64,000 nt of DNA from Gammaproteobacteria bacterium (GCA_041984235.1 JBHIYN010000005.1:195083-259082), one strand, 5' to 3'; shown: positions 27,001 through 44,202, numbered from the stretch's first letter. Notes: generated by a model from the letters alone, not told the origin. Numbers and translations are program-made.

Positions 27001-27282
27001 GCCGTTGTGGCAGCAACCGCCCAGCGCGTCCGGCCCGTCGCCATGACGGCCATCTCGACGATGGCGGGACTCGTTCCCATCATGGTCAGCGACGCAACCG
27101 GATCCGACGTCACCCATCGCATCGCCGCACCGATGTTGGGCGGCATGGTGACGGTCATGGTCCTCAACCTCCTCGTGCTTCCGGTCATCTACAGTTTCGT
27201 GCTGCAGGCGCGGGAACGTCCGGGCTCCTCCCGGCAGGCAGGCGAGGCGTCGGGGTCGCGCGCCGAGGATCCCATGGCCTGA
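24091..27282 (+). CDS. cusA: HME-RND heavy-metal efflux pump, inner-membrane subunit (CusA/CzcA family)
   Basis: 1063 aa from MIEGIINASLRDRLMVLIAAG, the CusA-type N-terminus. 12 TM helices and large periplasmic loops. Overlaps the cusB end by 8 nt. Confidence 0.9.
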   Translation: MIEGIINASLRDRLMVLIAAGIIAVAGFYAYQSTPLDAIPDLSDVQVIVFTKYPGQSPQVVEDQVTYPLTTSMLAVPRTKVVRGYSFFGLSFVYVIFEDGTDMYWARSRVLESLNYVSGRLPSGVTPTLGPDATGVGWIYEYALVDRSGKHDLAQLRSIQDWYLRYPLQTVQGVAEVASIGGYVKQYQVEVDPNALLRFNIPLSTVRMAISMSNQDVGGRLVEISETEYMVRGLGYIEGLQDLRQVPVAVDDEGTPVRLEDVANVQIGPELRRGLADLNGEGEVAGGVVIMRFGDNALATIRAVRTKLDELRDGLPAGVEIVPVYDRGDLIERAVDSLTTSLIQELVIVSVVVIVFLVHVRSALVAILTLPLGILMAFIIMRLQGLNANIMSLGGIAITIGTMVDGAIVMVENGHSRLAEARERAGRDLEGEERWKVIGSSCREVGPALFFSLLVITISFLPIFTMQAQEGRLFKPLAFTATYAMAASAILAVSLVPVMMGYFVRGRIVSEQANPINRLLHLLHRPVLSLAMRWRLATIVLATLVLAGTYYPYSRLGSEFMPPLDEGDILYMPTTFPGISITKARELLQQTDRILSTFPEVHHVFGKVGRAESATDAAPLAMIETTVRLRPREQWPDPDKSTRGLMNEMDRALQFPGLANAWTMPIKTRIDMLSTGIKTPIGIKVSGPDLAVLQAVSQDIEQAMKTLPETTSAFGDRAVGGYYLDFDIDREAAARYGLTVGAVQDVIQTAIGGMNITETVEGLERYPVNLRYPRELRDNLEALKRVLVPTPIGAQIPMALLADIRYERGPPVIKSEGARPNAWIYVDISTSDIGGFVARAKEAVERQVTIPPGYTLAWSGQFEYMERAAARLRIVAPATLLIIFLLLYINFRNLYEPLIVMLSIPFALVGGIWFVYLNDYNLSVAVAVGFIALAGMAAEIGVLVLSFIDVEIAARRSDRSAPLSVGTIREAVVAATAQRVRPVAMTAISTMAGLVPIMVSDATGSDVTHRIAAPMLGGMVTVMVLNLLVLPVIYSFVLQARERPGSSRQAGEASGSRAEDPMA

Positions 27283-27772
27283 TCCGCGGCCGGACCCGGC
27301 CTTGCCCGCGCACGGACTGCGCACACCGGAGGACGCTGGTTACCGCGCCCGCTTTCGCCCTGGTGAGCGATGAACACACCGATCATGGGCGAACGTTCAT
27401 GCATTCCTCGGGAAAAGCCGGGCTCGACGTCTGGTACGACTGGTATTGGAAAGGATGCGCGGGTTCGGCTACCGCTACAGGCACCGGCTTCCCGGCTCCC
27501 CGCGTCTGCTGCCGTAACCGGCGGGCTCGTCGGCAGGTGCTCGTCTTCGGGATCGCAGCGCGGGCCGACCGCAGCCGGTGCCCGGGACATTCCGCCCGCC
27601 GGAGCGATGGCAGATCTTTCTCTGGCCGTGACTTTCCTGCACATGCCAATCCGGAGCCGCCAGGCATACCTCGCGCAGACGCGTCCCGATACACCGGTAC
27701 GCATCTTGCTTGTCGAGTGACTGAACACTGAATACACGTAGCGCAGCCGAACGTGGCTGCGGAGGAGCACCA

Positions 27773-28522
27773 ATGAACGCGACCGCAATTCTGTATCGCA
27801 TGGTTACCGACGAGCACGTCTGCCCATATGGCCTCAAGGCCAGGCACCTGCTGCGCAGAAACGGATACGAGGTCGACGACAGGAAGCTGACCTCGCGCGA
27901 GGAGGCCGAGTCGTTCAAGCGCCGCGAGGGCGTCGATACCACGCCCCAGGCGTTCGTGGATGGCGAGCGTATCGGCGGCTACGAGGACGTCCGGCGATTT
28001 CTCGACCAGGGCGGCGAAGTGGCCGAGGACGACGAGACGACCTATCAGCCCGTCGTTGCCGTTTTCGCCACCACCTTCCTCATGGCCCTGGCGGCAGCCT
28101 GGGCCATGACCGGCGAGGTCTGGACGATGAAGGCGGCGGAATGGTTCGTGGCGTTCTCGATGTGCGTGCTCGCCATCCTGAAGCTCCGCGATCTCGAGAG
28201 CTTCTCCCTGCAGTTCCTGAACTATGACCTGCTCGCGCAGCGATACGTGCCTTACGCGTACTTCTATCCGTTTGCCGAGGCCGCGGCCGGCGTGCTGATG
28301 ATCGCCGGTGCCGTTATCGCGGTGGCGGCGCCGCTGGCCCTTTTCATCGGCACGGTGGGCGCCGTTTCGGTGGCGAAGGCGGTCTACGTGGACAAGCGCG
28401 AGCTGCGCTGCGCGTGCGTCGGCGGAAACTCCAACGTCCCGCTGGGCGCGATTTCGCTGACCGAGAACCTCATGATGATGGCCATGGGCACGTGGATGCT
28501 GGCCTCGCGCGTCGTTGCCTAG
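27773..28522 (+). CDS. glutaredoxin-domain / MauE-DoxX-like membrane-domain fusion protein
   Basis: 249 aa. The N-terminus has a Grx fold (CPYG active-site motif, ...TTPQAFVDGERIGGYEDV). The C-terminus has four hydrophobic helices with a CACVGG motif, as in MauE-family thiol-redox membrane proteins. An RBS-like GGAGGAG lies 9 nt upstream. Confidence 0.7.
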   Translation: MNATAILYRMVTDEHVCPYGLKARHLLRRNGYEVDDRKLTSREEAESFKRREGVDTTPQAFVDGERIGGYEDVRRFLDQGGEVAEDDETTYQPVVAVFATTFLMALAAAWAMTGEVWTMKAAEWFVAFSMCVLAILKLRDLESFSLQFLNYDLLAQRYVPYAYFYPFAEAAAGVLMIAGAVIAVAAPLALFIGTVGAVSVAKAVYVDKRELRCACVGGNSNVPLGAISLTENLMMMAMGTWMLASRVVA

Positions 28523-28532
28523 CGGCGCGCGC

Positions 28533-28560
28533 GGAGCCGGGCCCTTCCCGGCTCGGGCCC
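28533..28560. terminator. GC-rich hairpin between convergent genes (grx-mauE and pcoB)
   Basis: gagccgggcccttcccggctc forms a 7-bp stem (GAGCCGG/CCGGCTC). It sits in a 105-bp convergent intergenic gap with no U-tract, so it could act as a bidirectional intrinsic-like terminator. Confidence 0.3.
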
Positions 28561-28627
28561 GGTGCACAGCCGGGCGGAACGCCGGCCGACCGTCGGACCG
28601 GGCGCTGGCACCGCGAGGACCGGGCCG

Positions 28628-29368
28628 TCAGAACCAGAACCGCACGCCGGCGACGACGGCGGTAATCGACGCCGGCTCCCCGGCCCGGCGCGCGATGTCC
28701 CGCGTCTCGCCGTGCAGGCGCTCCCACGAAATACCGATATAAGGCGCGAACTCGCGGCGGACCTGGTAGCGCAGGCGCAGCCCGAGTTCGGTCGCGTTGA
28801 GACCGCTGCCGCGGTCCACCTGCGGGATGTCGGAGAAGGCCGCGTTGAGCTCCAGGCGCGGCTGCAGCACGAGGCGCTGGGTAATGTTGACGTTGTACTC
28901 GACCTCCAGTCGTGCCGTGACCTCGCCGTCCTCGTCGATGAACAGTGCGCTGTCGAGCTCGAACTCGTAGGGAACCACGCCCTGGATGCCGAGCACCGCG
29001 TGCGTCAGCTCGGGGTTCGGGCTGAAGTCGTGACGCAATCCCACCTGCCAGTCCCAGAACGGCGCGATCAACCGGCTGTAGAGCAGCTGCAGCTCGGCGC
29101 TCTCGGGCGTGTGCCCGAACTCGCCTTCGCCCTCCGTCTTGACCCAGGCCCGGTTGCGCCCGCTGCCATACCAGCCCTGCACGTCCCACACGTAGCCATC
29201 GACCTCGTCGGCGAAGCGCGTCTCGACCCGATCGCCGAGCAACATGCCGTAATGGGTGTGGTGCATGGGGGACGGCCAGTCGTCCGGCGTTCCGGCCGGG
29301 TCGTAGGCGGGCGCCTGAAGTGCGGCGGTCAGCGCGGCGAGCCCCGCAAGATAATGCACGGACTTCAT
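28628..29368 (-). CDS. pcoB: copper resistance protein B (outer-membrane beta-barrel)
   Basis: 246 aa from MKSVHYLAGLAALTAALQAPA (signal peptide). CopB-like body with a conserved C-terminal ...VAGVRFWF. The CAT was verified at 29366-29368. Confidence 0.85.
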   Translation of the reverse strand: MKSVHYLAGLAALTAALQAPAYDPAGTPDDWPSPMHHTHYGMLLGDRVETRFADEVDGYVWDVQGWYGSGRNRAWVKTEGEGEFGHTPESAELQLLYSRLIAPFWDWQVGLRHDFSPNPELTHAVLGIQGVVPYEFELDSALFIDEDGEVTARLEVEYNVNITQRLVLQPRLELNAAFSDIPQVDRGSGLNATELGLRLRYQVRREFAPYIGISWERLHGETRDIARRAGEPASITAVVAGVRFWF

Positions 29369-31188
29369 GCGGAGCCCTCCTGATTGACCCGCACGACCCG
29401 GAACATGCCCATCTCCATGTGGTAGAGCAGGTGGCAGTGGAACGCCCAGCGGCCTGGCGCATCGGCCGTGATCAGGGCGGATACCCGCGCCGCGGGCATC
29501 ACGTTGATGGTGTGCTTGCGCGGGATACGCCGGCCGTGTCCGTTCTCCAGCTCCATCCACATGCCGTGCAGGTGTATGGGGTGGTTCATCATCGTGTCGT
29601 TGACCAGGATGAGGCGCAGGCGCTCCTGGTGGTAGAACTCGATCGGGCCGTCGACCTCGTGGAACTGCTTGCCGTCGAACGACCACATGTAGCGCTCCAT
29701 GTGCCCGGTCAGGTGCAGCTCGATCTCCCGGCCCGGTTCGCGGTCGTCGAAGCGGTCGTCGCGGCGGACGAGGTCGCGGTACACGAGTACGCGGTGCGGC
29801 ACGCCGACGAGACCGGTGCCACGCTCGCCCAGCCGGTCGCGCTGGAGCTGCGCGACACTGATGTTGCCGGGGCCGTGGTCATCCTCGTCGTGGCGCGCGA
29901 CGACCGGCCCGAACCCGTTCATGTCAGCCATCGCCATGCCGGCATGACCGCCATGGCCGGCGTGCCCTGCGTGGGCGCCCGCACCGCCAGCGGTGCCGCC
30001 AGCCGCGTCGTGCCCGCCTTCTCCGCCGCCGTGCATCTGCATGTCCATGCCCATGTCGACCATGTCCAGCAACGGGCGCGGCCTGAGCGGGGGGATTGGC
30101 GCCGACAGGCCCGGCGCGGTGGCGAGGGTACCGGCAGCATAGCCGCTGCGATCCATGCTCTCGGCCATCACCGTGTAGGCGACCTCACCGCGCGGCTCGA
30201 CGACGACGTCGTAGGTCTCGGCAACGCCGATCTGGAATTCGTCGGTCTCGACCGGCTCGACCGGCTGGCCGTCCGCCGCGACCACCGTCATCGCCAGCCC
30301 CGGAATGCGCACGTTGAAGAACGACATCGCCGAGCCGTTGATGAAGCGCAGGCGCACGCGCTCGCCCGGGGCGAACAGGCCGGTCCAGTTACCGGCCGGG
30401 TGCAGGCCGTTCATGAGGTAGGTGTAGGTAGCACCGGTCACGTCGGCGATGTCGGTTGGCATCATGCGCATGCGATCCCACGCCAGCTTGGTCTGCCACG
30501 CTTCGCGCGCCGTCATGTCGCCGGTCGCGAACAGGGAGCTCGCCGTGAACTGCTGGAAGTTGTAGTAGTCGCTCATCTTCTTGAGCTTGGCCAGCACCCG
30601 GTACGGGTCCTCGAAAGTCCAGTCCGTCAGCATGACGACGTAATCCCGATCACAGGCGACGGGATCGGGCTCGCGCGGGTGCACGACGAGCGGGCCGTAC
30701 ACGCCGGATTGCTCCTGCAGGCCGGAGTGGCTGTGGTACCAGTAGGTGCCGCTCTGGACGACGGGGAAACGGTAGCGAAACGTCTCTCCGGGGGCGATAC
30801 CGTGGAAGGTGACGCCGGGAACGCCGTCCATCTCGAACGGCAGCAGGATGCCGTGCCAGTGGATCGAGGTGGACTCGCCGAGGTGGTTGGTCACGTCGAG
30901 GATGACTTCACGCCCTTCCTGCCACTCGAGCAGGGGCCCGGGGACTGAGTCGTTGATCGTCATCGCCTGCCCGATACCGCCTGCGATATCGAGACGCTGC
31001 CCGCGTATTGCCAGCTCGAACCGGAGCGGCCCCGACGACGCGCGAAGGCCCCCTCGTGAAACCGGTGCGCCGTGGACCCAGCCCGGCAGCATATTGCCCA
31101 CGCCGAAGGCCGCAGTGCCCGCCAGAGCCTGCCGGACGAAACGGCGCCGGCTTTCGAGTGTTGCACCGGGCTGATGAGAACGTGACAT
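29365..31188 (-). CDS. pcoA: periplasmic multicopper oxidase CopA/PcoA (Tat-exported) with a Met/His-rich segment
   Basis: 607 aa from MSRSHQPGATLESRRRFVRQ (Tat motif). Cu-binding motifs HWHG, HSH, HPIHLHG and HCHLLYHMEMGM. Methionine-rich insert MDMQMHGGGEGGH...HAGHAGHGGHAGMAMADM. Overlaps the pcoB start by 4 nt. Confidence 0.9.
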   Translation of the reverse strand: MSRSHQPGATLESRRRFVRQALAGTAAFGVGNMLPGWVHGAPVSRGGLRASSGPLRFELAIRGQRLDIAGGIGQAMTINDSVPGPLLEWQEGREVILDVTNHLGESTSIHWHGILLPFEMDGVPGVTFHGIAPGETFRYRFPVVQSGTYWYHSHSGLQEQSGVYGPLVVHPREPDPVACDRDYVVMLTDWTFEDPYRVLAKLKKMSDYYNFQQFTASSLFATGDMTAREAWQTKLAWDRMRMMPTDIADVTGATYTYLMNGLHPAGNWTGLFAPGERVRLRFINGSAMSFFNVRIPGLAMTVVAADGQPVEPVETDEFQIGVAETYDVVVEPRGEVAYTVMAESMDRSGYAAGTLATAPGLSAPIPPLRPRPLLDMVDMGMDMQMHGGGEGGHDAAGGTAGGAGAHAGHAGHGGHAGMAMADMNGFGPVVARHDEDDHGPGNISVAQLQRDRLGERGTGLVGVPHRVLVYRDLVRRDDRFDDREPGREIELHLTGHMERYMWSFDGKQFHEVDGPIEFYHQERLRLILVNDTMMNHPIHLHGMWMELENGHGRRIPRKHTINVMPAARVSALITADAPGRWAFHCHLLYHMEMGMFRVVRVNQEGSA

Positions 31189-31339
31189 GAGCGCTCCTCG
31201 TGAATTTTTCGCCGCGCGGCAGAACATTGGCGGCGGATCGATGATGTTGAACAGGTTACGCGCCGTGCGGCTCAGCGGCTTTCCTGCGACGGTCCGCGTG
31301 CTGCTGCCAGCCGAATAGCCGCGAGCGTCCTGCCGACGA

Positions 31340-31386
31340 TGAATCACGCGACGATTCGTTCTGCGATTCGTTCTGCGATGCGTTCA
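31340..31386. repeat. tandem 12-bp direct repeats (GATTCGTTCTGC x2 plus a degenerate third copy) in the pcoA upstream region
   Basis: cgattcgttctgcgattcgttctgcgatgcgttcatgg lies 150-200 bp upstream of the pcoA start codon. Confidence 0.5.
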
Positions 31387-31708: not shown

Positions 31709-32161
31709 TCATTTCCAGGCAGCCCCACACGCGCCGCGATCCCGTGACTGATGCGTGGCAGGCACCCCATTGCGGATCACCGGACACTGCGCGGACTCGT
31801 CACGGCCGCACCCGGATTGGTCCCAGCCCGCGACGAGACGCTCCATGCACCGGGCCATTTCCTCGAGCGCGGTAATCTCACGGCGTATATCTGCGAGACG
31901 TGCCCGAACGCTCTGCCGCAGACGCGCGCAGCATTGCGAGGTCCCGGCACGCTGGCGGTCGAGCATGTCACGGATGTCGGTGAGCCTCAGTCCGCACGCC
32001 TGTGCATCACGGATGAAACCGATTCTTTCCACCTCACGGGATTCGAAGCGACGATAGCCGTTCGGTTCGCGTGTCACCGGGCGCACGAGCCCGATACGGG
32101 CGTAGTAGCGCACCACCTCGGGCTTCTCCCCGGCAGCGCGCGCGAGATCCTTGAGCAACAT
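31709..32161 (-). CDS. MerR-family metal-responsive transcriptional regulator (Cys-rich C-terminus)
   Basis: 150 aa. N-terminal MerR HTH (MLLKDLARAAGEKPEVVRYYARIGLVRP...NGYRRF). A dimerisation helix, then Cys residues (CC...C...CGRDESAQC) typical of metal-sensing MerR proteins. Confidence 0.8.
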   Translation of the reverse strand: MLLKDLARAAGEKPEVVRYYARIGLVRPVTREPNGYRRFESREVERIGFIRDAQACGLRLTDIRDMLDRQRAGTSQCCARLRQSVRARLADIRREITALEEMARCMERLVAGWDQSGCGRDESAQCPVIRNGVPATHQSRDRGACGAAWK

Positions 32162-32232: not shown

Positions 32233-32745
32233 TTATAAGCGGAGTCGCTGGGTGAGCCGGTAGACGTCCGCTGGTCGCGTTCCGTCTGCCCATAGACGAG
32301 GCCTGGGAACGACCGGCCCCAGGCCGGCCGATATCAGATCCGCGTAGCCGATTCCGGCGCAAACGCGGTGGTCATGACCGTTGCTGCCATCGGCAGGCGG
32401 CCCGTCGGCACTGCCGAGATGTGCATCAGGCTCACAGTCGAGCGCCGAAGCCGGCCCGGACAGGTCGTCGACCTTTGCCGCGTGGCGCGAAGCGCAGTCG
32501 TGGCGAGCGGGCTCCTGCCGGGTCTCGGCGGCTTCTGCGAAAGCGATACAGCACGGCTGGAACGCGCCGAGCAGCAGACTCAGGCACCACAGCGAGAGCA
32601 ACGTCCGTGCACGGCGACGCCGCGACGCGGTGCGGCGGCCAGGGCGGCTGTGCTCGGTAAACGGTCTCATGCGGCGACCCGCTGTGTGGTGCAACGCTGT
32701 CCAGTCTAGAACGCATCCGGTGCTCTGACTACCCGTGTCCTGCAC
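32233..32745 (-). CDS. possible small secreted Cys/His-containing protein (very uncertain)
   Basis: An internal Met (MRPF...) gives an Arg-rich n-region plus a hydrophobic h-region (TLLSLWCLSLLLGAFQPCCIAFA), then a segment containing HDC and HDHRVC. It overlaps a plus-strand ORF of similar length. The call rests on composition only. Confidence 0.2.
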   Translation of the reverse strand: MQDTGSQSTGCVLDWTALHHTAGRRMRPFTEHSRPGRRTASRRRRARTLLSLWCLSLLLGAFQPCCIAFAEAAETRQEPARHDCASRHAAKVDDLSGPASALDCEPDAHLGSADGPPADGSNGHDHRVCAGIGYADLISAGLGPVVPRPRLWADGTRPADVYRLTQRLRL

Positions 32746-32852: not shown

Positions 32853-33602
32853 ATGAGCGGATACAAGCACGAACTGCGCCGACTCCAGATTGGCCTGGTG
32901 CGCTTCCAACGCCACCTCATCGAGCACGGGCACCGCGCGCTGGTGATCCTGGAGGGCCGCGACGCGGCCGGCAAGGACGGGGTAGTCAAACGCTTCACGG
33001 CCCACCTCAGCCCGCGCGAGACGCGTACCCTCGCCCTCGGCCGCCCCTCCAGCCACGATCGCGACGCCTGGTACTTCCAGCGTTTCGTGCCACACCTGCC
33101 GGTGCGCGGCGAGACCGTGTTGTTCAACCGCAGCTGGTACAACCGCGCCGGGGTCGAACGCGTCATGGGCTTCTGCAGCGACGACGAGTACGCCGCGTTC
33201 ATGGCCCACGTGGTGACCTTCGAAACGCTGCTGGTCGACGCCGGCATCCAGATCTTCAAGTTCTACCTCGACATTTCCCGTTCGGAGCAGGCGCGGCGCC
33301 TCGCCGATCGCCGCAGGGATCCGCTCAAGCAATGGAAGTCGAGCCCGGTGGACGCCGTCGCGCTCGACCACTGGACCGACTACGGCGCCGCGCGCGACGC
33401 GATGCTGACAACGACCGACCACGAACGTGCACCCTGGATCGTGGTCTCGGCGAACGACAAGAAGCAGGCGCGCCTGAACGTGATCCGCTGGTTCCTGGCC
33501 AACGTCGAGTGCCCGGACCGCGACGAGCACGAGGCCGTTCCGGACCGTAACGTCGTCGCGCGCTTCGCCGACCCGGACCGCCGCTTCGAACTCGCGCCAT
33601 GA
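32853..33602 (+). CDS. ppk2: polyphosphate kinase 2 family protein
   Basis: 249 aa. PPK2 Walker A GRDAAGKDG, the FNRSWYNR motif and a lid region. Single-domain PPK2. Confidence 0.85.
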   Translation: MSGYKHELRRLQIGLVRFQRHLIEHGHRALVILEGRDAAGKDGVVKRFTAHLSPRETRTLALGRPSSHDRDAWYFQRFVPHLPVRGETVLFNRSWYNRAGVERVMGFCSDDEYAAFMAHVVTFETLLVDAGIQIFKFYLDISRSEQARRLADRRRDPLKQWKSSPVDAVALDHWTDYGAARDAMLTTTDHERAPWIVVSANDKKQARLNVIRWFLANVECPDRDEHEAVPDRNVVARFADPDRRFELAP

Positions 33603-33656
33603 TTCAGATGGCCAGGCCCCGCTTCGTCGCGGGCATGCACGCGGAGCGCTGAGATC

Positions 33657-34886
33657 GTGTCCACTCTGCCGGCAACAGCCGCGATCATCGGTGCCGGCCT
33701 GACCGGCCTCATGCTCGCTATGCGGAACGTGCGCACCAGCCCTGGGTGGCGCGCGACGGTGACTCCGCTGGCCTCGATCATCGGCAGCGGATTCCTGATC
33801 ATCGCGCCGATGCTGCACGCGCTGACCGGACGCTGGTCGCTGCTCGCCATAGCGGGCCTGTCCGCGCTAGCGTATGCCATTGGCAGCGTAATGCGCTTCA
33901 ACGTCGCTGTCGCCGAGCCGCGCCTGCAGGCGCGCCATGATACCATGCTGAATCGCGTTGACCGCGTCTCGCAGCTCGTGCTCGGCGCGACCTACGCCGT
34001 GTCTGTTGCGTTCTATACCAGTCTCTTCGTGGCTTTCCTGGCCCAGCGCGTACCCGCGCTCGAGCTGTCGCAGGCGGCCGTGACCAGCGTCGTGCTGATC
34101 GCGATCACGGCAGTTGCCTGGCGGCGGGGCACGCGGGGACTCGAGTCGATCGAGGTCACGGCGGTCACCGTCAAGCTCGCCATTATCGCCGGCGTCCTGG
34201 CCGGGCTCGCGCTGTACGACGCGCAGCGCGCGATGCCGTGGTTCGAACATGCACCAATCGCCGACTTCTCGGCCTGGGACACGGCGGCCGCGCTCGCCGG
34301 CATGCTGATGGTGGCGCAGGGCTTCGAGACCACCCGCTTCACCGGCCACCTCTACCCACGACAGGTGCGCGTGCGCGCCGCGCGGCGCGCGCAGCTCGTC
34401 GCCGCCGGGATCTACGTCCTGTTCGTCGGGCTGACCTGTCCGCTGTACCTCGAGTTTCCCATCGCCGTGCTGACCGAGACGACGGTAAGCGAGACCCTCG
34501 GCCACGTGGCGCTGGTATTTCCGTCGATGCTGTTCGTCGCCGCGGCGGCCAGCCAGCTCAGCGCGGCGCTTGCCGATACCATCGGCGGCGCCGGACTGAT
34601 CACGGAGGCGGCGCCGGTTCCGCTGGGTGACACCGCAGGCTGCATGCTCATGGTCACCACGGCTCTGGCGATCGTCTGGACCACGGATGTCTTCGGCATC
34701 ATCAACGTCGCCTCGAAAGGCTTCGCGCTCTACTACCTGCTACAGGTGCTGGTTACCGTTCGCGTGCTGCTGGGCGATCCGCACCGCGCCCGCCGTCGTC
34801 GCGTCGCCGGGCTCGCCGGCTGCGGCCTGCTGGCGGCGGCGTTGTTGTTCGTGGTCGTCTTCTCGCGCGCCGCGCCGCATGCATGA
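33657..34886 (+). CDS. polytopic membrane protein of unknown function (10 or more predicted TM helices)
   Basis: 409 aa, strongly hydrophobic throughout with no recognisable motif. Tightly linked to ppk2 upstream and the lycopene-cyclase-domain gene downstream. Confidence 0.5.
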   Translation: MSTLPATAAIIGAGLTGLMLAMRNVRTSPGWRATVTPLASIIGSGFLIIAPMLHALTGRWSLLAIAGLSALAYAIGSVMRFNVAVAEPRLQARHDTMLNRVDRVSQLVLGATYAVSVAFYTSLFVAFLAQRVPALELSQAAVTSVVLIAITAVAWRRGTRGLESIEVTAVTVKLAIIAGVLAGLALYDAQRAMPWFEHAPIADFSAWDTAAALAGMLMVAQGFETTRFTGHLYPRQVRVRAARRAQLVAAGIYVLFVGLTCPLYLEFPIAVLTETTVSETLGHVALVFPSMLFVAAAASQLSAALADTIGGAGLITEAAPVPLGDTAGCMLMVTTALAIVWTTDVFGIINVASKGFALYYLLQVLVTVRVLLGDPHRARRRRVAGLAGCGLLAAALLFVVVFSRAAPHA

Positions 34887-34904
34887 CACCCAGGAGAACG
34901 TGAC

Positions 34905-35621
34905 ATGAGCAGACTCCCCGTCGATCTCGTCTGGCTGTGCTGGTCGCTGGCCTTCCTGCTGGCGTGGCTGGCGCTCTACGTCCGGTTCGAGCGACACCGC
35001 GATGCGATGCTGCGGGTGAGCCTGTTCACCCTGCCTTTCGGCCTCACCGAGCCGCTGTTCGTGCCCGAGTACTGGTCGCCGCCGAGCCTGTTCGACCTCG
35101 CGCGGCGCACCGGCTTCGACATCGAGAGCCTCATCTTCTGCTTCGGCATTGGCGGCGTGGGCGCGGTGCTCTACAACCTGGTCAGCGGTACCCGCCTGGT
35201 GCCGGTATCGCCGGACTGCCGCGCACGTCCCCTGCACCGTTATCACCGTCTCGCCATCGCGTCGCCGTTCCTGGCCTTTCTGCCGCTCTACTTCCTGCCC
35301 TGGAACGTCATCTACGCCGCCATCGCGGCGATGGCGATCGGTGGCGCGGCAACCCTGCTGTGCCGGCCCGACCTGCGCGCGACGACCTGGCTCGGCGCGC
35401 TGCTGTTCACCGGCTACTACTGGATCTTCATGCAGGGGCTGGACTGGCTCCACCCGGGCTACATCGACGCGGTATGGAACCACGCGGCGCTGAGCGGCTG
35501 GCGCGTGTACGACGTGCCGGTCGAGGAGCTCCTGTTCGCCGCCGGCTTCGGCTGGTACTGGGCCGGAGTCTACGGGCACTACACCTGGCAGCGCCCCGAG
35601 CCGCTGCCGCCGCCGGGCTGA
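34905..35621 (+). CDS. lycopene cyclase domain-containing membrane protein (fused CrtYcd-like)
   Basis: 238 aa. Two half-domains, each with a PxE(E/Y) motif in a hydrophobic context (FVPEYW and VPVEELLFAAGFG), as in heterodimeric or fused lycopene cyclases. Multi-TM. Confidence 0.4.
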   Translation: MSRLPVDLVWLCWSLAFLLAWLALYVRFERHRDAMLRVSLFTLPFGLTEPLFVPEYWSPPSLFDLARRTGFDIESLIFCFGIGGVGAVLYNLVSGTRLVPVSPDCRARPLHRYHRLAIASPFLAFLPLYFLPWNVIYAAIAAMAIGGAATLLCRPDLRATTWLGALLFTGYYWIFMQGLDWLHPGYIDAVWNHAALSGWRVYDVPVEELLFAAGFGWYWAGVYGHYTWQRPEPLPPPG

Positions 35622-35646: not shown

Positions 35647-36513
35647 TCATGGGTCCGCAACGGGCTGGTAGTGTCCCGGATCCTCGACGAAGCGCTCGAG
35701 GCAGCGCCGCGAGCAGAAGACGTGGCGCTCACCGTCGTGGCGATAGGTGAACGGCGCACTCCACGTGTCGACGCGCATGCCGCAGACCGGGTCGCGCCGC
35801 CACGCGTGCGCCTCGCTGCGCCGGTCGTGCAGGCGGCCGTCCTCGATCCACAGGATGCGATCGGCGACCTCCTCGACCCGAGGGTCGTGAGTGACGATGA
35901 CCACCGCGCAGCCGTGATCGCGCGCGACGTCGTGCAGGATCATCATCACCTCCTGCCCGCGATGGGAATCCAGGTTACCGGTGGGCTCGTCCGCGATCAC
36001 GATTGGCGGCTCGTTGATCAGCGCGCGCGCGATCGCGACGCGCTGCTGCTCGCCGCCGGAAAGCGTACGCGGGTAGGCGCGCACCCGCGCCTCGAGCCCG
36101 AGCCGCCCGAGCAGGTCGTACGCGCGCAGCCGCGCGGCCTTCATGTCCTGGCCCGCGAGGGCAGCGGGCAGCAGCACGTTGTCGATCACGTTCAGTGGCG
36201 CGAGCAGATTGAAGGCCTGGAACACGAAGCCGATGCGGTGCGCGCGCAGGCGTGCGAGACCGGCACGACCAGAGAACGACACGGGCTCGCCGAGAACGCG
36301 CACCTCGCCCGCACTCGGCGTCAGCAGGCAGCCGAGCATTGAGACCAGGGTGGTCTTGCCCGAGCCCGACGGCCCCGTGATCATGACCAACTCACCCCCA
36401 CGTACCGCGAGCGAGACTTCGTCGACCGCGACCACCCGCGCCGGTCCGACGCCGAAGTGGCGCGACAGCCCGCGCGCCTCGAGCACGATCGCGTTCGGAC
36501 CAGGCGTACTCAC
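35647..36513 (-). CDS. ABC transporter ATP-binding protein (LolD/MacB-ATPase type) fused to a C-terminal YHS/TRASH metal-binding domain
   Basis: 288 aa from a GTG start ([16 protein letters not shown]) overlapping the upstream stop (GTGA). Walker [10 protein letters not shown], signature [15 protein letters not shown], Walker [13 protein letters not shown]. The C-terminal DPVCGMRVD...[12 protein letters not shown] is a YHS/TRASH-type Cys motif. Confidence 0.8.
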
Positions 36514-37619
36514 GCGGCAAACGCCCGCGCGGGGTCGACGGCGGCGAGACGGGCGGCGGCCAGCCCGCCCGCGACCAGCGCCCCGACCGACGCGATGACC
36601 GCCAGATCGAGCACCATGCCAGGCTCGAGCGCGAGGCTGACGGCGGGCAACACCAGGGCGCTCAGGTGTGTCAGCGCGGCGCCGGCCAGCACCGCGCCGG
36701 CGACCCCGGCGCCGCCGAGGGCGAACGCGAGTGCCAGCGCGCTCAGGGCGAGCCGGCCGGTGCCGGCCCCGAGCGCCTTGCACACCACCAGCTCGGGCAG
36801 TCGCCGCGCGATGAACGCCTGCACCGAGAAGGCGCTGAGCACGGTGGCGAGCAGCGTGCCGACGAGGGTCATGAGCCCGATCAGCTCGACCCCCATGCGC
36901 AGGGCCATCCCGCGATCGCTCGCGATGAACGCCGCCGACGGCATCGCGTGCACGCCATCGACCTCGGCTTCGATGCGATCGGCCGCCCATCCCGGGTCGA
37001 ATCCGTGCTCGAGGTCGACCAGCAGGTAGCTATAGGACGACATCGCGCCGGTGATCTCGCGTAGGGTAGCCAGGGTCACGAACACGACCGAGTTGGCCAT
37101 CGAGAAGGTGCCCCGGCTCGCGCCGACGATGGTCAGCTCGCGGTCGGACAAGCGCGCGTGCCCGCCGGTCTCGAGGCGCGTGAGATCCATGATGACGTCC
37201 GGCAGCACGACCTCATCTCGGGCCCGCGGCAGCCGCCCGGCTGAAAGCGCCCACGGGCCGGCGCGCGCGTCGTCCGGCTCCGTGCCGACCACGTAGGCGA
37301 AAAAGCGCCGGCCGCCGGCGACGACCGAGGTGTTGAGGTACAGGATCGGGGTCACCCGGGCGACCCCGTCCACGTGGGCGACCTCGTCACGCTTCGAGTC
37401 CCAGATGAGCGAGCTCGCCATGTGCATGTTCGCGATGCCCCGCTGCATGATCCACACGTCCGCCCCCATGCGCTCGGGGTAGGCGACGATGCGCGCCGCC
37501 TCGCCGGCGAACACTGCCTTGAACAGCAGCACCAGCAGCAACGCCGCGGCGATGCCGCCCGCGCCGAGCAGGAAGGCCGCGCGGTCGTCGGCGATGCTGC
37601 GCACGAGCCAGCGGCCCAC
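36510..37619 (-). CDS. ABC transporter permease, FtsX/MacB-LolC family (second subunit)
   Basis: 369 aa. N-terminal TM, a periplasmic domain, and a C-terminal three-TM FtsX module (...VVCKALGAGTGRLALSALALAFALG...). Confidence 0.8.
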   Translation of the reverse strand: MGRWLVRSIADDRAAFLLGAGGIAAALLLVLLFKAVFAGEAARIVAYPERMGADVWIMQRGIANMHMASSLIWDSKRDEVAHVDGVARVTPILYLNTSVVAGGRRFFAYVVGTEPDDARAGPWALSAGRLPRARDEVVLPDVIMDLTRLETGGHARLSDRELTIVGASRGTFSMANSVVFVTLATLREITGAMSSYSYLLVDLEHGFDPGWAADRIEAEVDGVHAMPSAAFIASDRGMALRMGVELIGLMTLVGTLLATVLSAFSVQAFIARRLPELVVCKALGAGTGRLALSALALAFALGGAGVAGAVLAGAALTHLSALVLPAVSLALEPGMVLDLAVIASVGALVAGGLAAARLAAVDPARAFAA

Positions 37620-37621
37620 CG

Positions 37622-38764
37622 TCAGCGCCTCAGTGCCGCGGCGGGATCGATGCCCCGGATCAGGCGCAGCGGCGCCAGTCCGCCGAGCACGGCGGCCGCG
37701 ATCGCCCCGGCCAGCAGGCGGGTGACCGTGGCCGGCTCGAGCGGCGCGACCCGGTAGAGCGGCGCCAGCACCTGCACGATCTCCGCCGTGGCGATCGCCA
37801 GCAGGAAGCCCGGCGGCACCGCCAGCAGCGTGCGCAGCACGCCTTCGCCGATCAGCATCGCCGTCGCGGTGCGGCGCGGGCAGCCGAGCGCGTCCAGCAC
37901 CACGTGCTCGCGCAGCCGCCCCTGGACCGTGGTGAACATGACGATGCCGACGACCAGCAGCGAGGCGGCCCAGGCCACGCCCAGCAGTACCCCCAGGATC
38001 GGATCGAGCAGGTCACGGCCTAGCGCGGCGTCGTTGGCGGCCAGCGCCGGGGCCGCGAACACGTCGACCGCGGGCACCGCCGTCTCGATACGCGCGGCGA
38101 GGGCCGCGGGCGCCTCCCCGGCGGCAGGCTCGATCAGCAGCGACGACATCAGCGGGAAGCTCGTGATGTCGGCGCCGACGTCGAGCGCCCAGAACCAGTC
38201 GATGAGGTCGCCGTAATCCATGAAGGCGAACGGAGTGAAGAACGCGGCCGCACCGCGCGCGATGCCCGAGACCTCGAACCGGTAGCCGCTCAGCGCAACG
38301 CCGTCGCCGGGCGCGATGCCGAACGCCACTGCGAGCGATTCGTCGAGCACGATCCGCCCCCCCCCGAGCCCCGGGTCACCGGCGACCAGGTGTCGTGGCC
38401 CACCGGCGCCGTCCGTCACCATCACGATGATCGGCATGGTGCCCCCGTCGCGCTCGAACACCACCGGCACCAGGGTCATAGGTGCGGCACCGGCGACGCC
38501 CGGCACGGCTTCGATCTGCAGGCGCGCCTGCTGCGGAATGCTCGAGCGCACGGCGAGGAAGTTGTCGAGACCGGCCTGCAGTGCGATCAGCGGCGCGCCG
38601 CGGTCGAGCACGGTCTCGCGCAGCTGCTGGTCGAGCCCGTTGCGGAAGCCCTCCAGCACCAGCACGACGGCGAGCACCGCGGCCAGCGCGAAGAGCATCG
38701 CCATCTCGCGCCCCGGTCGTTGTAGCAGGCGGCGGGTCAGCAGCTTCGGATAGAGATGGGCCAT
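37622..38764 (-). CDS. ABC transporter permease, FtsX/MacB-LolC family (first subunit)
   Basis: About 380 aa from the internal Met MAHLYPKLLTRRLL. This start avoids overlap with the upstream APC gene. Same FtsX architecture (...LDALGCPRRTATAMLIGEGVL...). Two permeases plus one ATPase gives a LolCDE-like layout. Confidence 0.75.
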   Translation of the reverse strand: MAHLYPKLLTRRLLQRPGREMAMLFALAAVLAVVLVLEGFRNGLDQQLRETVLDRGAPLIALQAGLDNFLAVRSSIPQQARLQIEAVPGVAGAAPMTLVPVVFERDGGTMPIIVMVTDGAGGPRHLVAGDPGLGGGRIVLDESLAVAFGIAPGDGVALSGYRFEVSGIARGAAAFFTPFAFMDYGDLIDWFWALDVGADITSFPLMSSLLIEPAAGEAPAALAARIETAVPAVDVFAAPALAANDAALGRDLLDPILGVLLGVAWAASLLVVGIVMFTTVQGRLREHVVLDALGCPRRTATAMLIGEGVLRTLLAVPPGFLLAIATAEIVQVLAPLYRVAPLEPATVTRLLAGAIAAAVLGGLAPLRLIRGIDPAAALRR

Positions 38765-38813: not shown

Positions 38814-40139
38814 TCAGGACGCCCCATCGTGCCCGCCGGAGCCGCCTCGATGCGTGCGCAGGTACCATGCCTCGAAGACGAAGACCGCCACCATGCCCAC
38901 GAGGGCAACACCAATGACGAACGGATCGCTGCGCCACTTCACCACGACGAATGCACCGAGCGCCGCAACATCGAGAACCATCGCGGCTACCAGCACCGCC
39001 GGTTGCGCCTGCACGTCCTCGCGCAGGTGCCGCAGGACACCCCAGTGGATGGCGATGTCCATCACGAGATAGAAAACCGCACCGAGCGCGGCGATGCGCG
39101 ACAGGTCGAAGAAGACGGCCAGGACCCCCGCGACCACGACGGTGTAGACCAGCGTGTGCTGCTGGATCGTGCCCGGCATACCGAAGTGCCGATGCGGGAT
39201 GATCGACATGTCGGTCAGCATGGCCAGCATGCGCGAAACGGCGAATATGCTCGCGAGGATCCCGGATGCAGTCGCGATGATCGCGATTGCGACGGTGAAC
39301 CAGGTGCCGTAGATGCCGAGGGCGGGCCGCGAGGCCTCCGCGAGCGAGTAATCCCGGGCCGCGACGATCTCGTCGATGCTCAGCGAGGACCCAACGGCCA
39401 AACACACGGCCAGGTATACGAGCGTGCACACCGCCAGGGACAGGGTGATTGCCCGGCCTACGTTGCGGTGCGGATCCTCCACCTCGTCGCCACTGTTGGT
39501 GATGGTCGTGAAGCCCTTGTAGGCAAGGACCGCAAGTGCGGTGGCCGCCCAGAACGAGGCCAGGGTGGGCGTCTGCGCGCCACCCGCCCCGGCCGCGCCG
39601 AAGCGCCATCCTCCTGCCCACAGGGCCGCGCCCGCAAACGCGAGGATACCGAGGACCTTGAACACCGCCGTGATCTTCGAGACAACCCCGACGACGCGGT
39701 TGCCGGCCAGGTTCACCAGGAAGGCCGCGACGATCAGCCCGAGCGCGAGGAGCGGCAACGCGTAAGCCGGGGGCTCGGTATCGAATAATTGCAGGGTGTA
39801 GGTCGCGAAGGTTCGTGCCACCAGGCTCTCGTTGATGATCATCGAGAAGGCCATCAACAGAGCGCAGCCTCCGGTCATCACACCGGGACCGTATGCCTTG
39901 TTCAGAATCATCGCGATTCCGCCGCTGGACGGATACCGGCTCGTGACGCGCACGTAGGTGTAGGCGCTGAAGGCGCTGACCACCGCCGCGAGGAGAAAGG
40001 CAAGAGGAAAGAATGCACCGGCCAGCTCCGCGACCTGCCCGGTCAGGGCAAAGATCCCGGCGCCGATCATGACCCCGGTACCCATGGCAACCGTGCCCGA
40101 GAGGCTCAGGCTGCCGGCGCGATATTCAGCTTCTCGCAT
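38814..40139 (-). CDS. APC-superfamily amino acid/polyamine permease
   Basis: 441 aa with 12 TM helices. APC-like N-terminus (GTVAMGTGVMIGAGIFALTGQVAELAG). Confidence 0.8.
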   Translation of the reverse strand: MREAEYRAGSLSLSGTVAMGTGVMIGAGIFALTGQVAELAGAFFPLAFLLAAVVSAFSAYTYVRVTSRYPSSGGIAMILNKAYGPGVMTGGCALLMAFSMIINESLVARTFATYTLQLFDTEPPAYALPLLALGLIVAAFLVNLAGNRVVGVVSKITAVFKVLGILAFAGAALWAGGWRFGAAGAGGAQTPTLASFWAATALAVLAYKGFTTITNSGDEVEDPHRNVGRAITLSLAVCTLVYLAVCLAVGSSLSIDEIVAARDYSLAEASRPALGIYGTWFTVAIAIIATASGILASIFAVSRMLAMLTDMSIIPHRHFGMPGTIQQHTLVYTVVVAGVLAVFFDLSRIAALGAVFYLVMDIAIHWGVLRHLREDVQAQPAVLVAAMVLDVAALGAFVVVKWRSDPFVIGVALVGMVAVFVFEAWYLRTHRGGSGGHDGAS

Positions 40140-40180: not shown

Positions 40181-40852
40181 TCACCCGGCATCAGGGCGGC
40201 CATCGCCATACAGAATACGCCTCGGGTGCGGCACGAACCGCGGCGTTCGCGCCGCGTATTGCCGCCAGGCGTCATCGAACTCGCGCTCCGCCTCGCGTTC
40301 CTCGTGCAGCGCGAGGCGCACGTACATGAATACCAGCAGTGGGTACATCGCGAGCGTGAGCAGGGTCGGCCACTGCAGCAGGAAGCCGGTCATGATGACG
40401 ACGAAGCCGACATACTGCGGATGTCTGAGATACCGATAGATGCCGCCCGTCGCGAGCCGCCGTGCGCGCTGCGCCAGGTAGAGCTCGCGCCAGCCGACCG
40501 AGATGAGCCAGAAGCCGCCGAAGATGAGCACGATGCTGAGCACGTGGAACGGCCCGAAATGCGGGTTGCCACGCCAGCCGAATATCATCTCGAGCAGGTG
40601 ACCCGAGTCATGGGCGAGCCAGTCGACCCCGGGATAGTGCGACTGCAGCCAGCCCGAGAGCAGGAAGATGGTCAGCGGGAAGCCGTACATCTCGGCGAAG
40701 AGCGCCACGACGAAGGCGCTGAAGGCGCTGAAGGAGCGCCAATCGCGGCGGGTCGCCGGCTTGAAGAAGCTGAAGGCAAAGATGATGAACACGGCGGAGT
40801 TGACCACCACCATGCCCCACAGGCCGTAGGAGGGGAGTGCCTCATGACCCAT
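40181..40852 (-). CDS. isoprenylcysteine carboxyl methyltransferase (ICMT)/phospholipid methyltransferase family membrane protein
   Basis: About 223 aa from MGHEALPSYGLWGMVVV. The C-terminal ICMT/PEMT motif region (...GIYRYLRHPQYVGFVVIMTGFLLQWPT...EEREAEREFDDAWRQY) is present. Confidence 0.75.
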   Translation of the reverse strand: MGHEALPSYGLWGMVVVNSAVFIIFAFSFFKPATRRDWRSFSAFSAFVVALFAEMYGFPLTIFLLSGWLQSHYPGVDWLAHDSGHLLEMIFGWRGNPHFGPFHVLSIVLIFGGFWLISVGWRELYLAQRARRLATGGIYRYLRHPQYVGFVVIMTGFLLQWPTLLTLAMYPLLVFMYVRLALHEEREAEREFDDAWRQYAARTPRFVPHPRRILYGDGRPDAG

Positions 40853-41102
40853 GGCGATCACCCTCGTCGCGGTCGTGGCCGTGCTCGCCGTGGTGCCCGC
40901 CGTGGCCATGGTGCAGGAGGTGCATGAGCGGGCAGGCAGCAAGAATGAGATAGGGCAGCGCACCCATGATGTGCAGCTTGTGCTCCTCCCACAGCACCGC
41001 GATTGCGAGCACGGCGAAGCCGCCAAACGCTAGCCAGAATCGCCGCGGCGAGGTCGCCTGCGGGTGCGCCGGCGCGCGTCTCGTGGTCTGGTCGTCGCCC
41101 AT
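40842..41102 (-). CDS. DUF2933-family small membrane protein with a His-rich tail
   Basis: 86 aa with one TM helix. The ILAACPLMHLLHHGHGGHHGEHGHD motif is typical of DUF2933. That family is commonly linked to ICMT-like methyltransferases and metal P-type ATPases. Confidence 0.7.
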   Translation of the reverse strand: MGDDQTTRRAPAHPQATSPRRFWLAFGGFAVLAIAVLWEEHKLHIMGALPYLILAACPLMHLLHHGHGGHHGEHGHDRDEGDRHGS

Positions 41103-41121: not shown

Positions 41122-43343
<2,222 letters not shown>

Positions 43344-43347
<4 letters not shown>

Positions 43348-43754
43348 TGCGGCGGTGTGACACTCTCGATGAGATAACAAATGGAATCGCCGACCGGGAT
43401 CCCGTCCGGCAGCTCGCGCCAGGCGCGCAGTGCGTGCTCGATGCGCTGCTGCAGCGCGCTGGCCTCGTCCAGCGCTTCGCGGTTCTCGCGCACCCGCCGC
43501 GCCAGGATCTCGCGCGCACGGGGGCACGGCGAGCGGCCGCGCTCGCTGGTGGCGAGCAGCTCGGCGATCTCGTCGAGGCGGTAGCCAAGCAACCGGGCCC
43601 TGCGGATGAAGGTGACGCGGACCAGATCGGCGTGGCCGAAGCGGCGGTATCCGTTGTGCGGGTCGCGCGCGGGATGCAGCATGCCCATGCGCACGTAGTA
43701 GCGCACGGCATCCGCCGTCACCCCGGCCGCGCGGGCGAGCTCGGTCACGGTCAT
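43344..43754 (-). CDS. cueR: MerR-family Cu(I)-responsive regulator (CueR/HmrR-like)
   Basis: 136 aa from [29 protein letters not shown]-terminal metal-binding loop Cys (...RSPCPRA...). Overlaps the copA start (ATGA). Confidence 0.8.
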
Positions 43755-44202
43755 GTTCGCCCGGGTTTGGCTCTGGCGCCTGTTTCGTCCATGCAAGCAG
43801 TCTAAAACATCGGTGCGGGACACAGGTCAAGCGCGAACCGTGTCGGGTATCGGGATTCGGAGCGATTCCGGAATCAGCGCGGAAACCCGGGCTCACGGTG
43901 CGACTGCGCAGCGCGTGGCGCGTCTTGGGTCGAACCAAAACCGAGACGCGGCCGGCCGGAGAAGAGGACAACATAGATGCAGCGGCAGGCCCGGCGAACG
44001 TCTGGCGCGTCCCGTCGGGCCCTCGTCCCGCAGCGTATGGATGCCCGGGAATCCGCTGGCGTGCGTCGCCCACCAGACTGGTTGTACCGCTTTCCGACAT
44101 CGCGGATGCGACCGTCAGGCCTGCGCCAACCCGGAATCGGGGTATGCTGCGGCCCCGGGCGCAAACCCTCGCCCGGTTTCTTTTAAGGGGGAGGATTCGA
44201 AG

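Follow-up and report, generated by a model that had tools for sequence, protein, structure and literature searches.

A copper-associated type VII ABC triad whose ATPase carries a YHS domain: a candidate metal-gated envelope pump

Described relatives and composition of the triad

HrtBA, LolCDE and MacAB-TolC are type VII (MacB-fold) ATP-binding cassette (ABC) systems that resemble the transporter described here. HrtBA of C. diphtheriae (PDB 7W78-7W7D) consists of a separate ATPase and a permease of four transmembrane helices (4-TM) with a small extracytoplasmic domain, works without an adaptor, takes its substrate at the outer-leaflet boundary and squeezes it out on ATP binding (PMC9271180). 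LolCDE combines one ATPase with two paralogous type VII permeases that have asymmetric roles, likewise has no membrane-fusion adaptor, and uses LolA. MacB is a homodimer in which the nucleotide-binding domain (NBD) is fused to the permease, and it needs MacA and TolC. Here we analysed a stretch of 64,000 nucleotides (nt) from a Gammaproteobacteria bacterium (GCA_041984235.1 JBHIYN010000005.1:195083-259082; hereafter the window), in which three genes at 35647-38764 encode two permeases and an ATPase that ends in a YHS/TRASH-type domain. This ABC triad is a good candidate for a new metal-gated envelope pump.

The three genes lie on the minus strand and are translationally coupled, the two permease genes being followed by that of the ATPase, and the coordinates given in the initial annotation of this DNA hold. 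The triad and the parts of it discussed below are:

37622..38764, minus strand: perm1, 380 amino acids (aa), ATG at 38764; type VII (MacB-fold) permease
36510..37619, minus strand: perm2, 369 aa; second type VII permease
37419..37430, minus strand: N64-M65-H66-M67 of perm2 (periplasmic loop of 12 residues), which may bind Cu(I)/Ag(I) outside the cytoplasm
35647..36513, minus strand: ATPase-YHS, 288 aa, GTG start at 36513, stop at 35647
35794..35829, minus strand: NBD-YHS linker, ATPase residues 229-240; consensus R229-D-R-K232..H236.W238, >90% conserved
35668..35793, minus strand: YHS/TRASH-type domain, ATPase residues 241-282; Pfam PF04945

The start of perm1 at ATG 38764 is backed by alignment with orthologues of ~376 aa. 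A longer open reading frame (ORF) from 38914 was rejected as a high-GC artefact, the orthologues aligning from ATG 38764; the GC content of the DNA is ~68%. The GTG start of the ATPase overlaps the perm2 stop by 4 nt (GTGA, 36510-36513). In Pfam searches, perm1 matched MacB_PCD (1.3e-11) and FtsX (1.1e-8) and passed both cut-offs. The match of perm2 to MacB_PCD (3.6e-9) also passed, while that to FtsX (1.9e-4) reached 21.9 bits, below the cut-off of 25.5. The ATPase matched ABC_tran (PF00005) at 6.6e-30 in addition to YHS (PF04945). Hydropathy analysis of perm1 gave TM1, a periplasmic domain of ~200 aa and TM2-4. For perm2, the AlphaFold2 (AF2) model (predicted local distance difference test, pLDDT, 90.9) has a long TM1/stalk helix, a mixed alpha/beta periplasmic domain, a stalk/TM2 helix and TM3-4. 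The triad is a type VII ABC system, with 4-TM permeases, an extracytoplasmic domain between TM1 and TM2 and an NBD of the MacB/LolD/FtsE/YbbA clade. We take perm2 to be the partner of perm1 in a predicted heterodimer. One family representative, P0193 (753 aa), matches the perm2 profile twice within one chain, apparently as a fusion of perm1 and perm2, which supports the view that the two act as a heterodimer.

By sequence and fold (NCBIfam, phmmer against the PDB, and Foldseek), the NBD was closest to those of MacB, YbbA, LolD and MJ0796. Its best NCBIfam matches were MacB, DevA, LolD and FtsE, and the comparison with the MacB structure (PDB 5lj9) gave E = 2e-59 and a TM-score of 0.90. Neither perm1 nor perm2, searched as single sequences, found a relative in the PDB. 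A profile built from 49 perm2 homologues matched HrtB best (7w78_B, E = 2.8e-16, full length), followed by MacB, YtrF, LolF, LolC, LolE, YbbP and FtsX. The initial annotation had compared the operon with the LolC-LolE-LolD layout; the permease profile matches HrtB better than LolC or LolE. Foldseek searches with the perm2 model returned LolE, HrtB, MacB and Spr0695 at E-values of 1e-17 to 1e-13, and YbbP and BceB were also among the structural relatives; identities were 14-20% (LolE, HrtB, MacB, Spr0695 and YbbP). The best E-value was that of LolE (1.2e-17, identity ~15%), and the TM-score of HrtB to perm2 (0.64-0.67, identity 18-20%) was among the best, equalled only by that of Spr0695 (5xu1, 0.67).

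No curated model assigns the triad to LolCDE, MacB or HrtBA. LolCDE membership was rejected on the scores of the ATPase against the LolD models TIGR02211 (206 bits against a cut-off of 307.75) and NF008639 (178.6 against 360). LolC/LolE identity was also rejected, with no NCBIfam match of perm2 at E <= 0.01 and a match of perm1 to the ADOP model only, at 22 bits. The match to MacB reached 229 bits against a cut-off of 966, covered the NBD only and concerned separate polypeptides, and membership in DevA likewise fails at the curated cut-offs of NCBIfam. Neither the permeases nor the ATPase-YHS fusion has a curated model in NCBIfam. The earlier description of the operon as LolCDE-like is thus correct for its layout and fold class and incorrect for its family membership.

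Like HrtBA, the triad appears to work without an adaptor: no HlyD-family adaptor gene was found beside the operon in the window or in the examined orthologous loci, and the only HlyD-type gene of the window is CusB-like (22296-24098) and lies inside a cusCBA-like block. HrtB, however, is a homodimer and has S-P-E-F-T-S-S where perm2 has N-M-H-M-A-S-S; HrtA lacks a YHS tail, and the context of HrtBA is heme (HssRS), whereas that of the triad is copper. LolCDE shares the two permeases with their asymmetric roles, the single ATPase and the lack of an adaptor, but LolD has no metal domain, and the partner found in many operons of the triad is PF17131 and not LolA proper. The E. coli gene order is lolC-lolD-lolE, in contrast to the permease-permease-ATPase order of the triad. 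To our knowledge, Rhodococcus, which carries the family, is not expected to have a Lol pathway. MacB has the NBD most similar to that of the triad and shares the MacB_PCD and FtsX permease fold, but it is a fused homodimer dependent on MacA and TolC, whereas the triad consists of separate chains with a predicted heterodimer.

The metal-binding tail of the ATPase

The ATPase ends in a stretch that begins DPVCGMRVD, which we confirmed at 35793..35668. The initial annotation had assigned this Cys motif to the YHS/TRASH type, and this identity is upheld by the Pfam score (PF04945, 35.4 bits against a gathering cut-off of 30.3 for residues 241-282) and by ligand residues that are invariant or nearly so. 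The YHS domain is a cysteine ribbon of the TRASH type and does not have the CopZ/HMA fold. Its residues read D241-P-V-C244-G-M246 ... F266-C267-S-R-R-C271 ... F275 ... P279..Y282, with a predicted ligand set of D241-x2-C244-x22-C267-x3-C271, which agrees with the general YHS/TRASH pattern (Asp/Cys-x2-Cys ... Cys-x3-Cys, spacer ~19-22 residues). Among 118 aligned homologues, C244, M246, C267 and C271 are invariant and D241 is present in 98%; D241, P242, V243, G245, W251, F266, R270, R274, F275, P279 and Y282 are all at least 94% conserved. PF04945 and PF00005 occur together on all of the best 120 homologues (59-86% identity) from a collection of 5.8 billion proteins. Since all of these homologues keep both domains, with conserved ligand residues, the fusion is not a chance one, and its proposed conservation in orthologues holds. 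No second YHS-like sequence occurs in the 64-kb window, the ATPase tail being the only one, and a search of the window found no HMA/CopZ chaperone.

The AF2 model of the ATPase has a mean pLDDT of 87, with block means of 78-91 over residues 241-280. In this model the tail is predicted to form strands at 238-240, 247-249, 255-259 and 262-266 and a helix at 269-277, which matches a compact ribbon fold of short strands plus a helix. Searches of the PDB with the 57-residue tail gave only marginal matches (zf-MYM, phenol hydroxylase and eL24; E 0.07-0.2), which are consistent with the TRASH superfamily but not proof of it. No solved ABC structure with such a tail was found in PDB sequence and fold searches. 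The tail is ~50% identical to the N-terminal YHS of the P1B ATPase in a related island (L081). The linker between NBD and YHS is as conserved as the YHS domain, suggesting that the tail is coupled to the NBD.

The one YHS domain shown to confer copper-dependent activation on the enzyme attached to it is the C-terminal YHS of the M. phlei adenylyl cyclase, where copper switches the enzyme on only if the YHS is present (PMC4626032). Its ligand spacing is identical to that of the ATPase tail (D-x2-C-x22-C-x3-C), a pattern also described for Cu ATPases, and both domains stand at the C-terminus of a dimerising nucleotide-using enzyme, after a short linker; the cyclase differs in its class III cyclase output and in that copper was given as Cu2+ in vitro (PMC4626032). 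With this domain and the regulatory metal-binding domains of P1B ATPases as precedents, we propose that the tail may gate the ATPase in response to metal. The C-terminal regulatory domains of MetN, ModC and MalK are ATPase-regulating analogues for such gating. In these proteins an extra ligand-binding domain after the NBD (C2 in MetN) modulates NBD closure; they belong to importers that are trans-inhibited by cytoplasmic substrate, whereas the triad would be a type VII exporter or extractor for which activation by a toxic metal is expected. No type VII ABC with a regulatory domain of this kind was found among solved structures or in the open-access literature and bioRxiv.

Alternatively, the tail could be a zinc ribbon with a structural or docking role, holding the NBD dimer together or binding a partner (for instance the HMBD or YHS of a P1B ATPase), with the pump controlled only by transcription (MerR, CsoR). 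In eL24 the metal of the TRASH domain is structural, no regulatory role is known for the hydroxylase YHS, and the tail itself weakly matches zf-FCS/MYM and eL24. Moreover, each locus has its own metal-responsive regulator, so that a second sensing layer is not strictly needed. The ligand set and spacing, however, equal those of the only YHS shown to confer copper activation, the tail is about half identical to the YHS domains of neighbouring Cu ATPases, and the conservation of the linker speaks for coupling to the NBD. We regard a zinc ribbon without a sensing role as doubtful, and prefer a tail that may act as a metal switch.

Other published cases in which a YHS or TRASH domain meets an ABC system differ from the triad in architecture. 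In the C. jejuni fetMP-fetABCDEF cluster, FetA (DUF2318 plus YHS) adjoins FetBCD and has a role in iron limitation (PMC10783030). The layout resembles that of the triad in its two permeases and ATPase, its YHS-bearing protein, its thioredoxins and its metal cluster, but the Fet YHS is on a separate membrane protein and predicted to be periplasmic, whereas the YHS of the triad is fused to a cytoplasmic ATPase (PMC10783030). Thioredoxin, CcdA or DsbD neighbours also occur at three triad loci (L089, L090 and L095), and no FTR1 or P19 Pfam family was found in any neighbourhood listed for triad loci. FetP (P19), which the Fet cluster also encodes, is a periplasmic copper-binding protein. LmABCB3 of Leishmania, like the ATPase described here, belongs to an ABC transporter with a fused TRASH-type Cys domain, but it is a mitochondrial ABCB half-transporter of another ABC fold, with the domain at the N-terminus and a function in heme/Fe-S metabolism (PMC4700571). 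Together with the cyclase-YHS fusion, FetA beside FetBCD and the TRASH domain of ABCB3 are the nearest published cases.

The Met-His-Met loop of perm2 and a proposed mechanism

In the AF2 model of perm2, the N-M-H-M loop sits ~20 residues past TM1, after the first strand that follows. The motif around it reads A-D-V-W-[IV]-M-Q-x-G-[IV]-x-N-M-H-M-A-x-S, and does not vary among 14/14 orthologues. The form [NT]-[ML]-H-M was found in 72/72 perm2 homologues, down to 31% identity; H66 and M67 are invariant, and a few of the homologues have Leu in place of M65. Clusters of the Met-His-Met kind typically bind Cu(I)/Ag(I), as in CusF, CusB, CopC and Ctr1, and we infer that the loop of perm2 may be such a site. 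The equivalent loop of perm1 is N-F-L-A-V-R-S-S (N-F-[ILV]-[AG]-x-R-S in the family), with conserved Arg and Ser and no Met or His. At the stalk/TM2 boundary of perm2, the orthologue alignment shows conserved D235, M242, G243, E245, M250 and T251, of which D235 aligns with Glu219 of HrtB, a heme ligand exposed at the outer-leaflet surface (PMC9271180). The idea that N-M-H-M is generic to MacB-type permeases was rejected, the HrtB and MacB sequences being unrelated at that place. The permeases of three non-YHS loci (L014, L015 and L019) have other loops and lack N-M-H-M.

With middling confidence, we propose that the triad works as a type VII mechanotransmission heterodimer. It would be an accessory of Cu(I)/Ag(I) resistance islands, gated by these metals, and would extract its cargo at the outer face of the inner membrane. 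Rising cytoplasmic Cu(I) or Ag(I) would bind the YHS tail and, via the conserved linker, switch on the ATPase or raise its turnover. As MacB, LolCDE and HrtBA do, the triad would relay the ATP-driven closure of its NBDs along the TM1/TM2 stalks into the periplasmic domains. No cargo would cross from the cytoplasm. The machine would pick it up on the outer side of the inner membrane and expel it on NBD closure, as in HrtBA (PMC9271180); the pick-up site would probably lie in perm2 and comprise M58, N64-M65-H66-M67, D235, M242, E245 and M250. The cargo may be Cu(I) itself or a Cu-laden hydrophobic species. Where the operon has five genes, as described below, it would be handed to a periplasmic LolA-like carrier and then to an outer-membrane barrel. 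The initial annotation had suggested metal-gated extrusion of a lipoprotein, peptide or metallophore, which stands as a hypothesis with good grounds. The weakest steps of this proposal are the gating and the identity of the cargo.

The metal-binding domain is cytoplasmic, as are those at the N-terminus of P1B ATPases, and the triad could also be taken for a true transmembrane Cu(I) exporter, in which the YHS, perhaps loaded from a chaperone, feeds cytoplasmic Cu(I) through the permease dimer in parallel to CopA. The conserved Met and Glu residues in TM2 of perm2 (M242, E245 and M250) would fit such a path. Solved type VII transporters, however, have no cytoplasm-facing substrate cavity, as is stated for HrtBA (PMC9271180). 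In the TM helices, the halves nearer the cytoplasm have no conserved Cys, Met or His, and perm1 has no conserved soft ligand at all. We consider transmembrane export highly improbable compared with extraction at the outer face.

Copper linkage, envelope partners and possible cargo

Homologous operons had been predicted to be metal-linked, and the comparison of loci agrees. Independent loci with at least 8 kb of sequence were scored for metal genes (P1B ATPase, MerR or CsoR, multicopper oxidase, DUF2933 and ICMT) within 10 kb, with loci of ordinary MacB-like ATPases retrieved by the same scan as the control. Metal genes were near 12/16 YHS loci compared to 3/53 control loci (odds ratio 50, Fisher p = 8e-8). 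The linkage covers P1B ATPases, MerR, CsoR and two-component regulators, multicopper oxidases and cupredoxins. The permease family counts 971 representatives at 50% identity (E <= 1e-30) and was seen in Proteobacteria, on an Actinomycetota plasmid and on unclassified metagenome contigs with a csoR-copA operon.

Individual loci illustrate the range of neighbours. Near the triad, L081 has DUF2933, ICMT, a P1B ATPase with YHS and HMBD, cytochromes c and a two-component system; L082 has two P-type ATPases, a cupredoxin, an APC permease and a free YHS protein; L083-L085 have MerR, an HMBD ATPase, DUF2933, PEMT, PPK2, Lycopene_cyc and DUF411; and L086 has a multicopper oxidase, CopB, an HMA ATPase, a cupredoxin and MerC. 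The same metal-linked pattern was seen where the permeases are only 31-32% identical: in L088 the triad adjoins a multicopper oxidase and an HMA protein, and in L090 it is divergent from a csoR-copA pair. On plasmid pRWAY03 of Rhodococcus sp. WAY2 (L095; NZ_CP046575.1 134825-159658), a single permease accompanies ATPase-YHS, among CopY-, CsoR- and ArsR-type regulators, a P-type ATPase, TlpA, CcdA, ResB, CcsB, an M23 peptidase and DUF305. This was the only true YHS orthologue in the plasmid search, the other 2068 records being ordinary MacB-like ATPases. The neighbours of a further triad, in L089, are genes for cytochrome c maturation (CcmF/H), DsbD, DsbA, thioredoxin and a large non-ribosomal peptide synthetase. 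Small unknown proteins in L081, L086, L088, L089 and L011 belong to no Pfam family, and none is common between loci.

Frequent neighbours of the triad include cytochromes c, Rieske proteins, cupredoxins, multicopper oxidases, TlpA, CcdA and DsbD, and such a setting could point to a motor for cuproprotein maturation or metal trafficking. The triad would then load copper onto, or unload it from, periplasmic partners (a multicopper oxidase, a cupredoxin or cytochrome c oxidase factors), much as has been proposed for NosDFY-NosL and for FetBCD next to FetA/P19. NosFY and NosD are required for CuZ assembly, and FetBCD, with its two permeases and ATPase, adjoins the YHS-bearing FetA and matters under iron limitation. 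Against a maturation role, no single periplasmic partner is conserved across the loci, and their dominant context is efflux and detoxification (P1B ATPase, Cus, CopA/CopB). We judge it very unlikely.

A gene for a periplasmic LolA_like protein (PF17131, 192.9 bits) lies beside the triad in 8/13 orthologous loci from genomes (L001, L002, L003, L005, L007, L008, L009 and L013). It follows the triad in seven of these and precedes it in L002, and in L007 (L007:946-3168) its start overlaps the stop of the ATPase. In six of these eight loci, a gene for a protein of ~400 aa without a Pfam match accompanies it. Four copies of this protein are full-length; each has a signal peptide and an aromatic or hydrophobic residue at its C-terminus, and the protein is probably an outer-membrane barrel. 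The triad, LolA_like and the putative barrel make up a five-gene operon, of which the window has a three-gene version. Neither a conserved Met/His cluster nor a lipobox was seen in the LolA-like proteins. The Rhodococcus copy (L095) has two lgt genes and one lnt gene on its flanks, together with genes for thiol reductants or cytochrome c biogenesis. Copper impairs lipoprotein acylation and trafficking in E. coli (PMC6538781), and Firmicutes copper-resistance elements carry lit2 and a second lgt (PMC8689077). The extra lipoprotein-acylation genes in the metal island of L095 recall these Firmicutes elements.

These genes bear on what the triad may extract. It could be a copper-stress, Lol-like extractor of lipoproteins or lipids, with the YHS only signalling that copper is high; the cargo would pass to the LolA-like carrier and the barrel, and might consist of lipoproteins that copper keeps from being acylated, or of copper adducts linked to lipids. 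The LolA_like and barrel genes, the lgt and lnt genes of the Rhodococcus plasmid, the copper effects in E. coli, the Firmicutes elements and the best Foldseek E-values, which were to lipoprotein-bound LolE, all speak for such an extractor. Conversely, the window, L081-L083 and L086 have no LolA-like, barrel, lgt or lnt gene, the scores fall short of the curated LolC/E and LolD models, the LolA-like proteins lack a Met/His cluster or lipobox, the lgt/lnt link comes from a single locus, and the invariant Met-His-Met loop is left unexplained. An extractor of this kind seems unlikely. The initial comparison with Lol gains support from the LolA_like gene in 8/13 loci, from the six with a putative barrel and from the Rhodococcus lgt and lnt genes. 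A more specific form of the extractor would be a dedicated second Lol-like route triggered by copper: switched on by the YHS, the type VII machine would remove lipoproteins poisoned by copper, or adducts of copper and lipid, from the outer leaflet of the inner membrane and send them for disposal through the LolA-like carrier and the barrel. We think this form quite unlikely.

The proposal of a Cu(I)/Ag(I)-gated machine that extracts at the outer face must itself be weighed against several observations. TRASH/YHS-type ribbons can be purely structural, as is the metal site of ribosomal eL24, and the YHS of toluene-4-hydroxylase was crystallised without metal. A related triad in L089 (L089:6882-9850) has an N-M-H-M permease but an ATPase of 242 aa that lacks YHS, so members of the wider family can do without the tail. 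The loop drifts in distant subfamilies (D-M-F-H-S, D-F-F-H-S and others), which means that it may be mechanistic and not a metal site; D-F-F-H-S occurs in the single-permease, homodimeric version of Rhodococcus, which keeps the YHS ATPase. Neither the window nor L081-L083 and L086 offers the carrier and barrel of the last proposed step. Finally, 4/16 YHS loci have no metal gene within reach, and co-location in an island is by itself no proof that copper is the cargo.

In the window, the triad closes a series of eight minus-strand genes with gaps of at most 49 nt: merR, P1B ATPase, DUF2933, ICMT/PEMT, APC permease, perm1, perm2 and ATPase-YHS. Because these genes lie so close on one strand, with ATGA and GTGA overlaps, they suggest one long metal-responsive transcript. 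Pfam confirmed the initial placement of the triad between PPK2 with membrane proteins and the APC/ICMT/DUF2933/P1B ATPase/MerR block. The whole metal island spans ~19.4-43.9 kb and is bounded by secD and an amidase gene. Its other features, identified with Pfam unless stated otherwise, are:

38814..40139, minus strand: APC-family permease (AA_permease_2, 5.7e-25), 49-nt gap upstream of perm1
~40181-40852, minus strand: ICMT/PEMT-like membrane methyltransferase
40842-41102, minus strand: His-rich DUF2933
41122..43347, minus strand: P1B-type ATPase (E1-E2_ATPase, Hydrolase, two N-terminal HMBD)
43344..43823, minus strand: MerR-family regulator (MerR_1/MerR-DNA-bind), likely start ATG 43754
32853..35621, plus strand: module of PPK2, a 409-aa membrane protein and a Lycopene_cyc-like protein (PF18916), convergent with the triad
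19410-20342: CDF transporter
21128-27282: cusCBA-like block (OEP/HlyD_D23/ACR_tran)
29365-31347: CopA-type multicopper oxidase
31709-32161, minus strand: second MerR regulator, with a CueR-like C-x8-C loop (CGRDESAQC)
32233-32745, minus strand: Cys-rich 170-aa ORF adjoining the second MerR, no Pfam family

The APC permease is probably in the same transcription unit as the triad, and an APC permease also adjoins the triad in L003 and L082. The P1B ATPase has CPC, YN and MSLSS motifs, which we take to place it in the P1B-1, Cu+/Ag+ class, and its ATG overlaps the merR stop (ATGA, 43344-43350). Upstream of merR, a TTGACC-N20-TAGACT element (~43799-43830; a visual match only) resembles a long-spacer MerR-type promoter; no clear CueR-type dyad was found there. 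A scan of the operon gave no sigma-70 site with a 16-18 nt spacer, and terminator-like sites only inside genes. Two long ORFs between the cusCBA-like block and the multicopper oxidase (27383-28567 and 28470-29462) have no Pfam match, and the expected CopB-like gene was not found in those frames. The 409-aa membrane protein of the PPK2 module belongs to no Pfam family. The same copper genes have both PPK2 and Lycopene_cyc-like genes nearby in L083-L085, and one of the two in each of L006 and L012; the module may connect polyphosphate with copper. The arrangement merR-copA-(cupredoxin)-DUF2933-ICMT is a copper-induced genomic-island module in Alteromonas, described with no mention of an ABC component (PMC8478169).

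The system had been thought to be uncharacterised, and we found no paper on a type VII system with an ABC ATPase-YHS in the open-access literature or bioRxiv, although subscription journals may differ. The combination of ABC ATPase and YHS domains is already visible in precomputed Pfam annotations; the triad stands out as a type VII ABC system that has a metal-binding module fused to it and, in the periplasm, a Met-His-Met loop specific to the family. Resistance to Cu and Ag is now explained by P1B ATPases, Cus-type RND pumps, multicopper oxidases and periplasmic chaperones, with no type VII ABC among them, and the family described here travels with copper determinants under three kinds of regulator (MerR, CsoR and two-component). 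Should the sensor gate the ATPase, the open-access literature and solved structures searched would have no earlier type VII ABC with a ligand switch of its own, nor an earlier ABC motor subject to 'trans-activation' by a toxic metal. What leaves the membrane surface under copper stress can be approached through the Met-His-Met loop and through the LolA-like protein and barrel that some of the operons add; this question connects to the attack of copper on lipoprotein maturation (PMC6538781). If the Lol-like route is true, the triad would represent post-translationally metal-gated cleaning of the envelope and would tie copper toxicity mechanistically to lipoprotein maturation.

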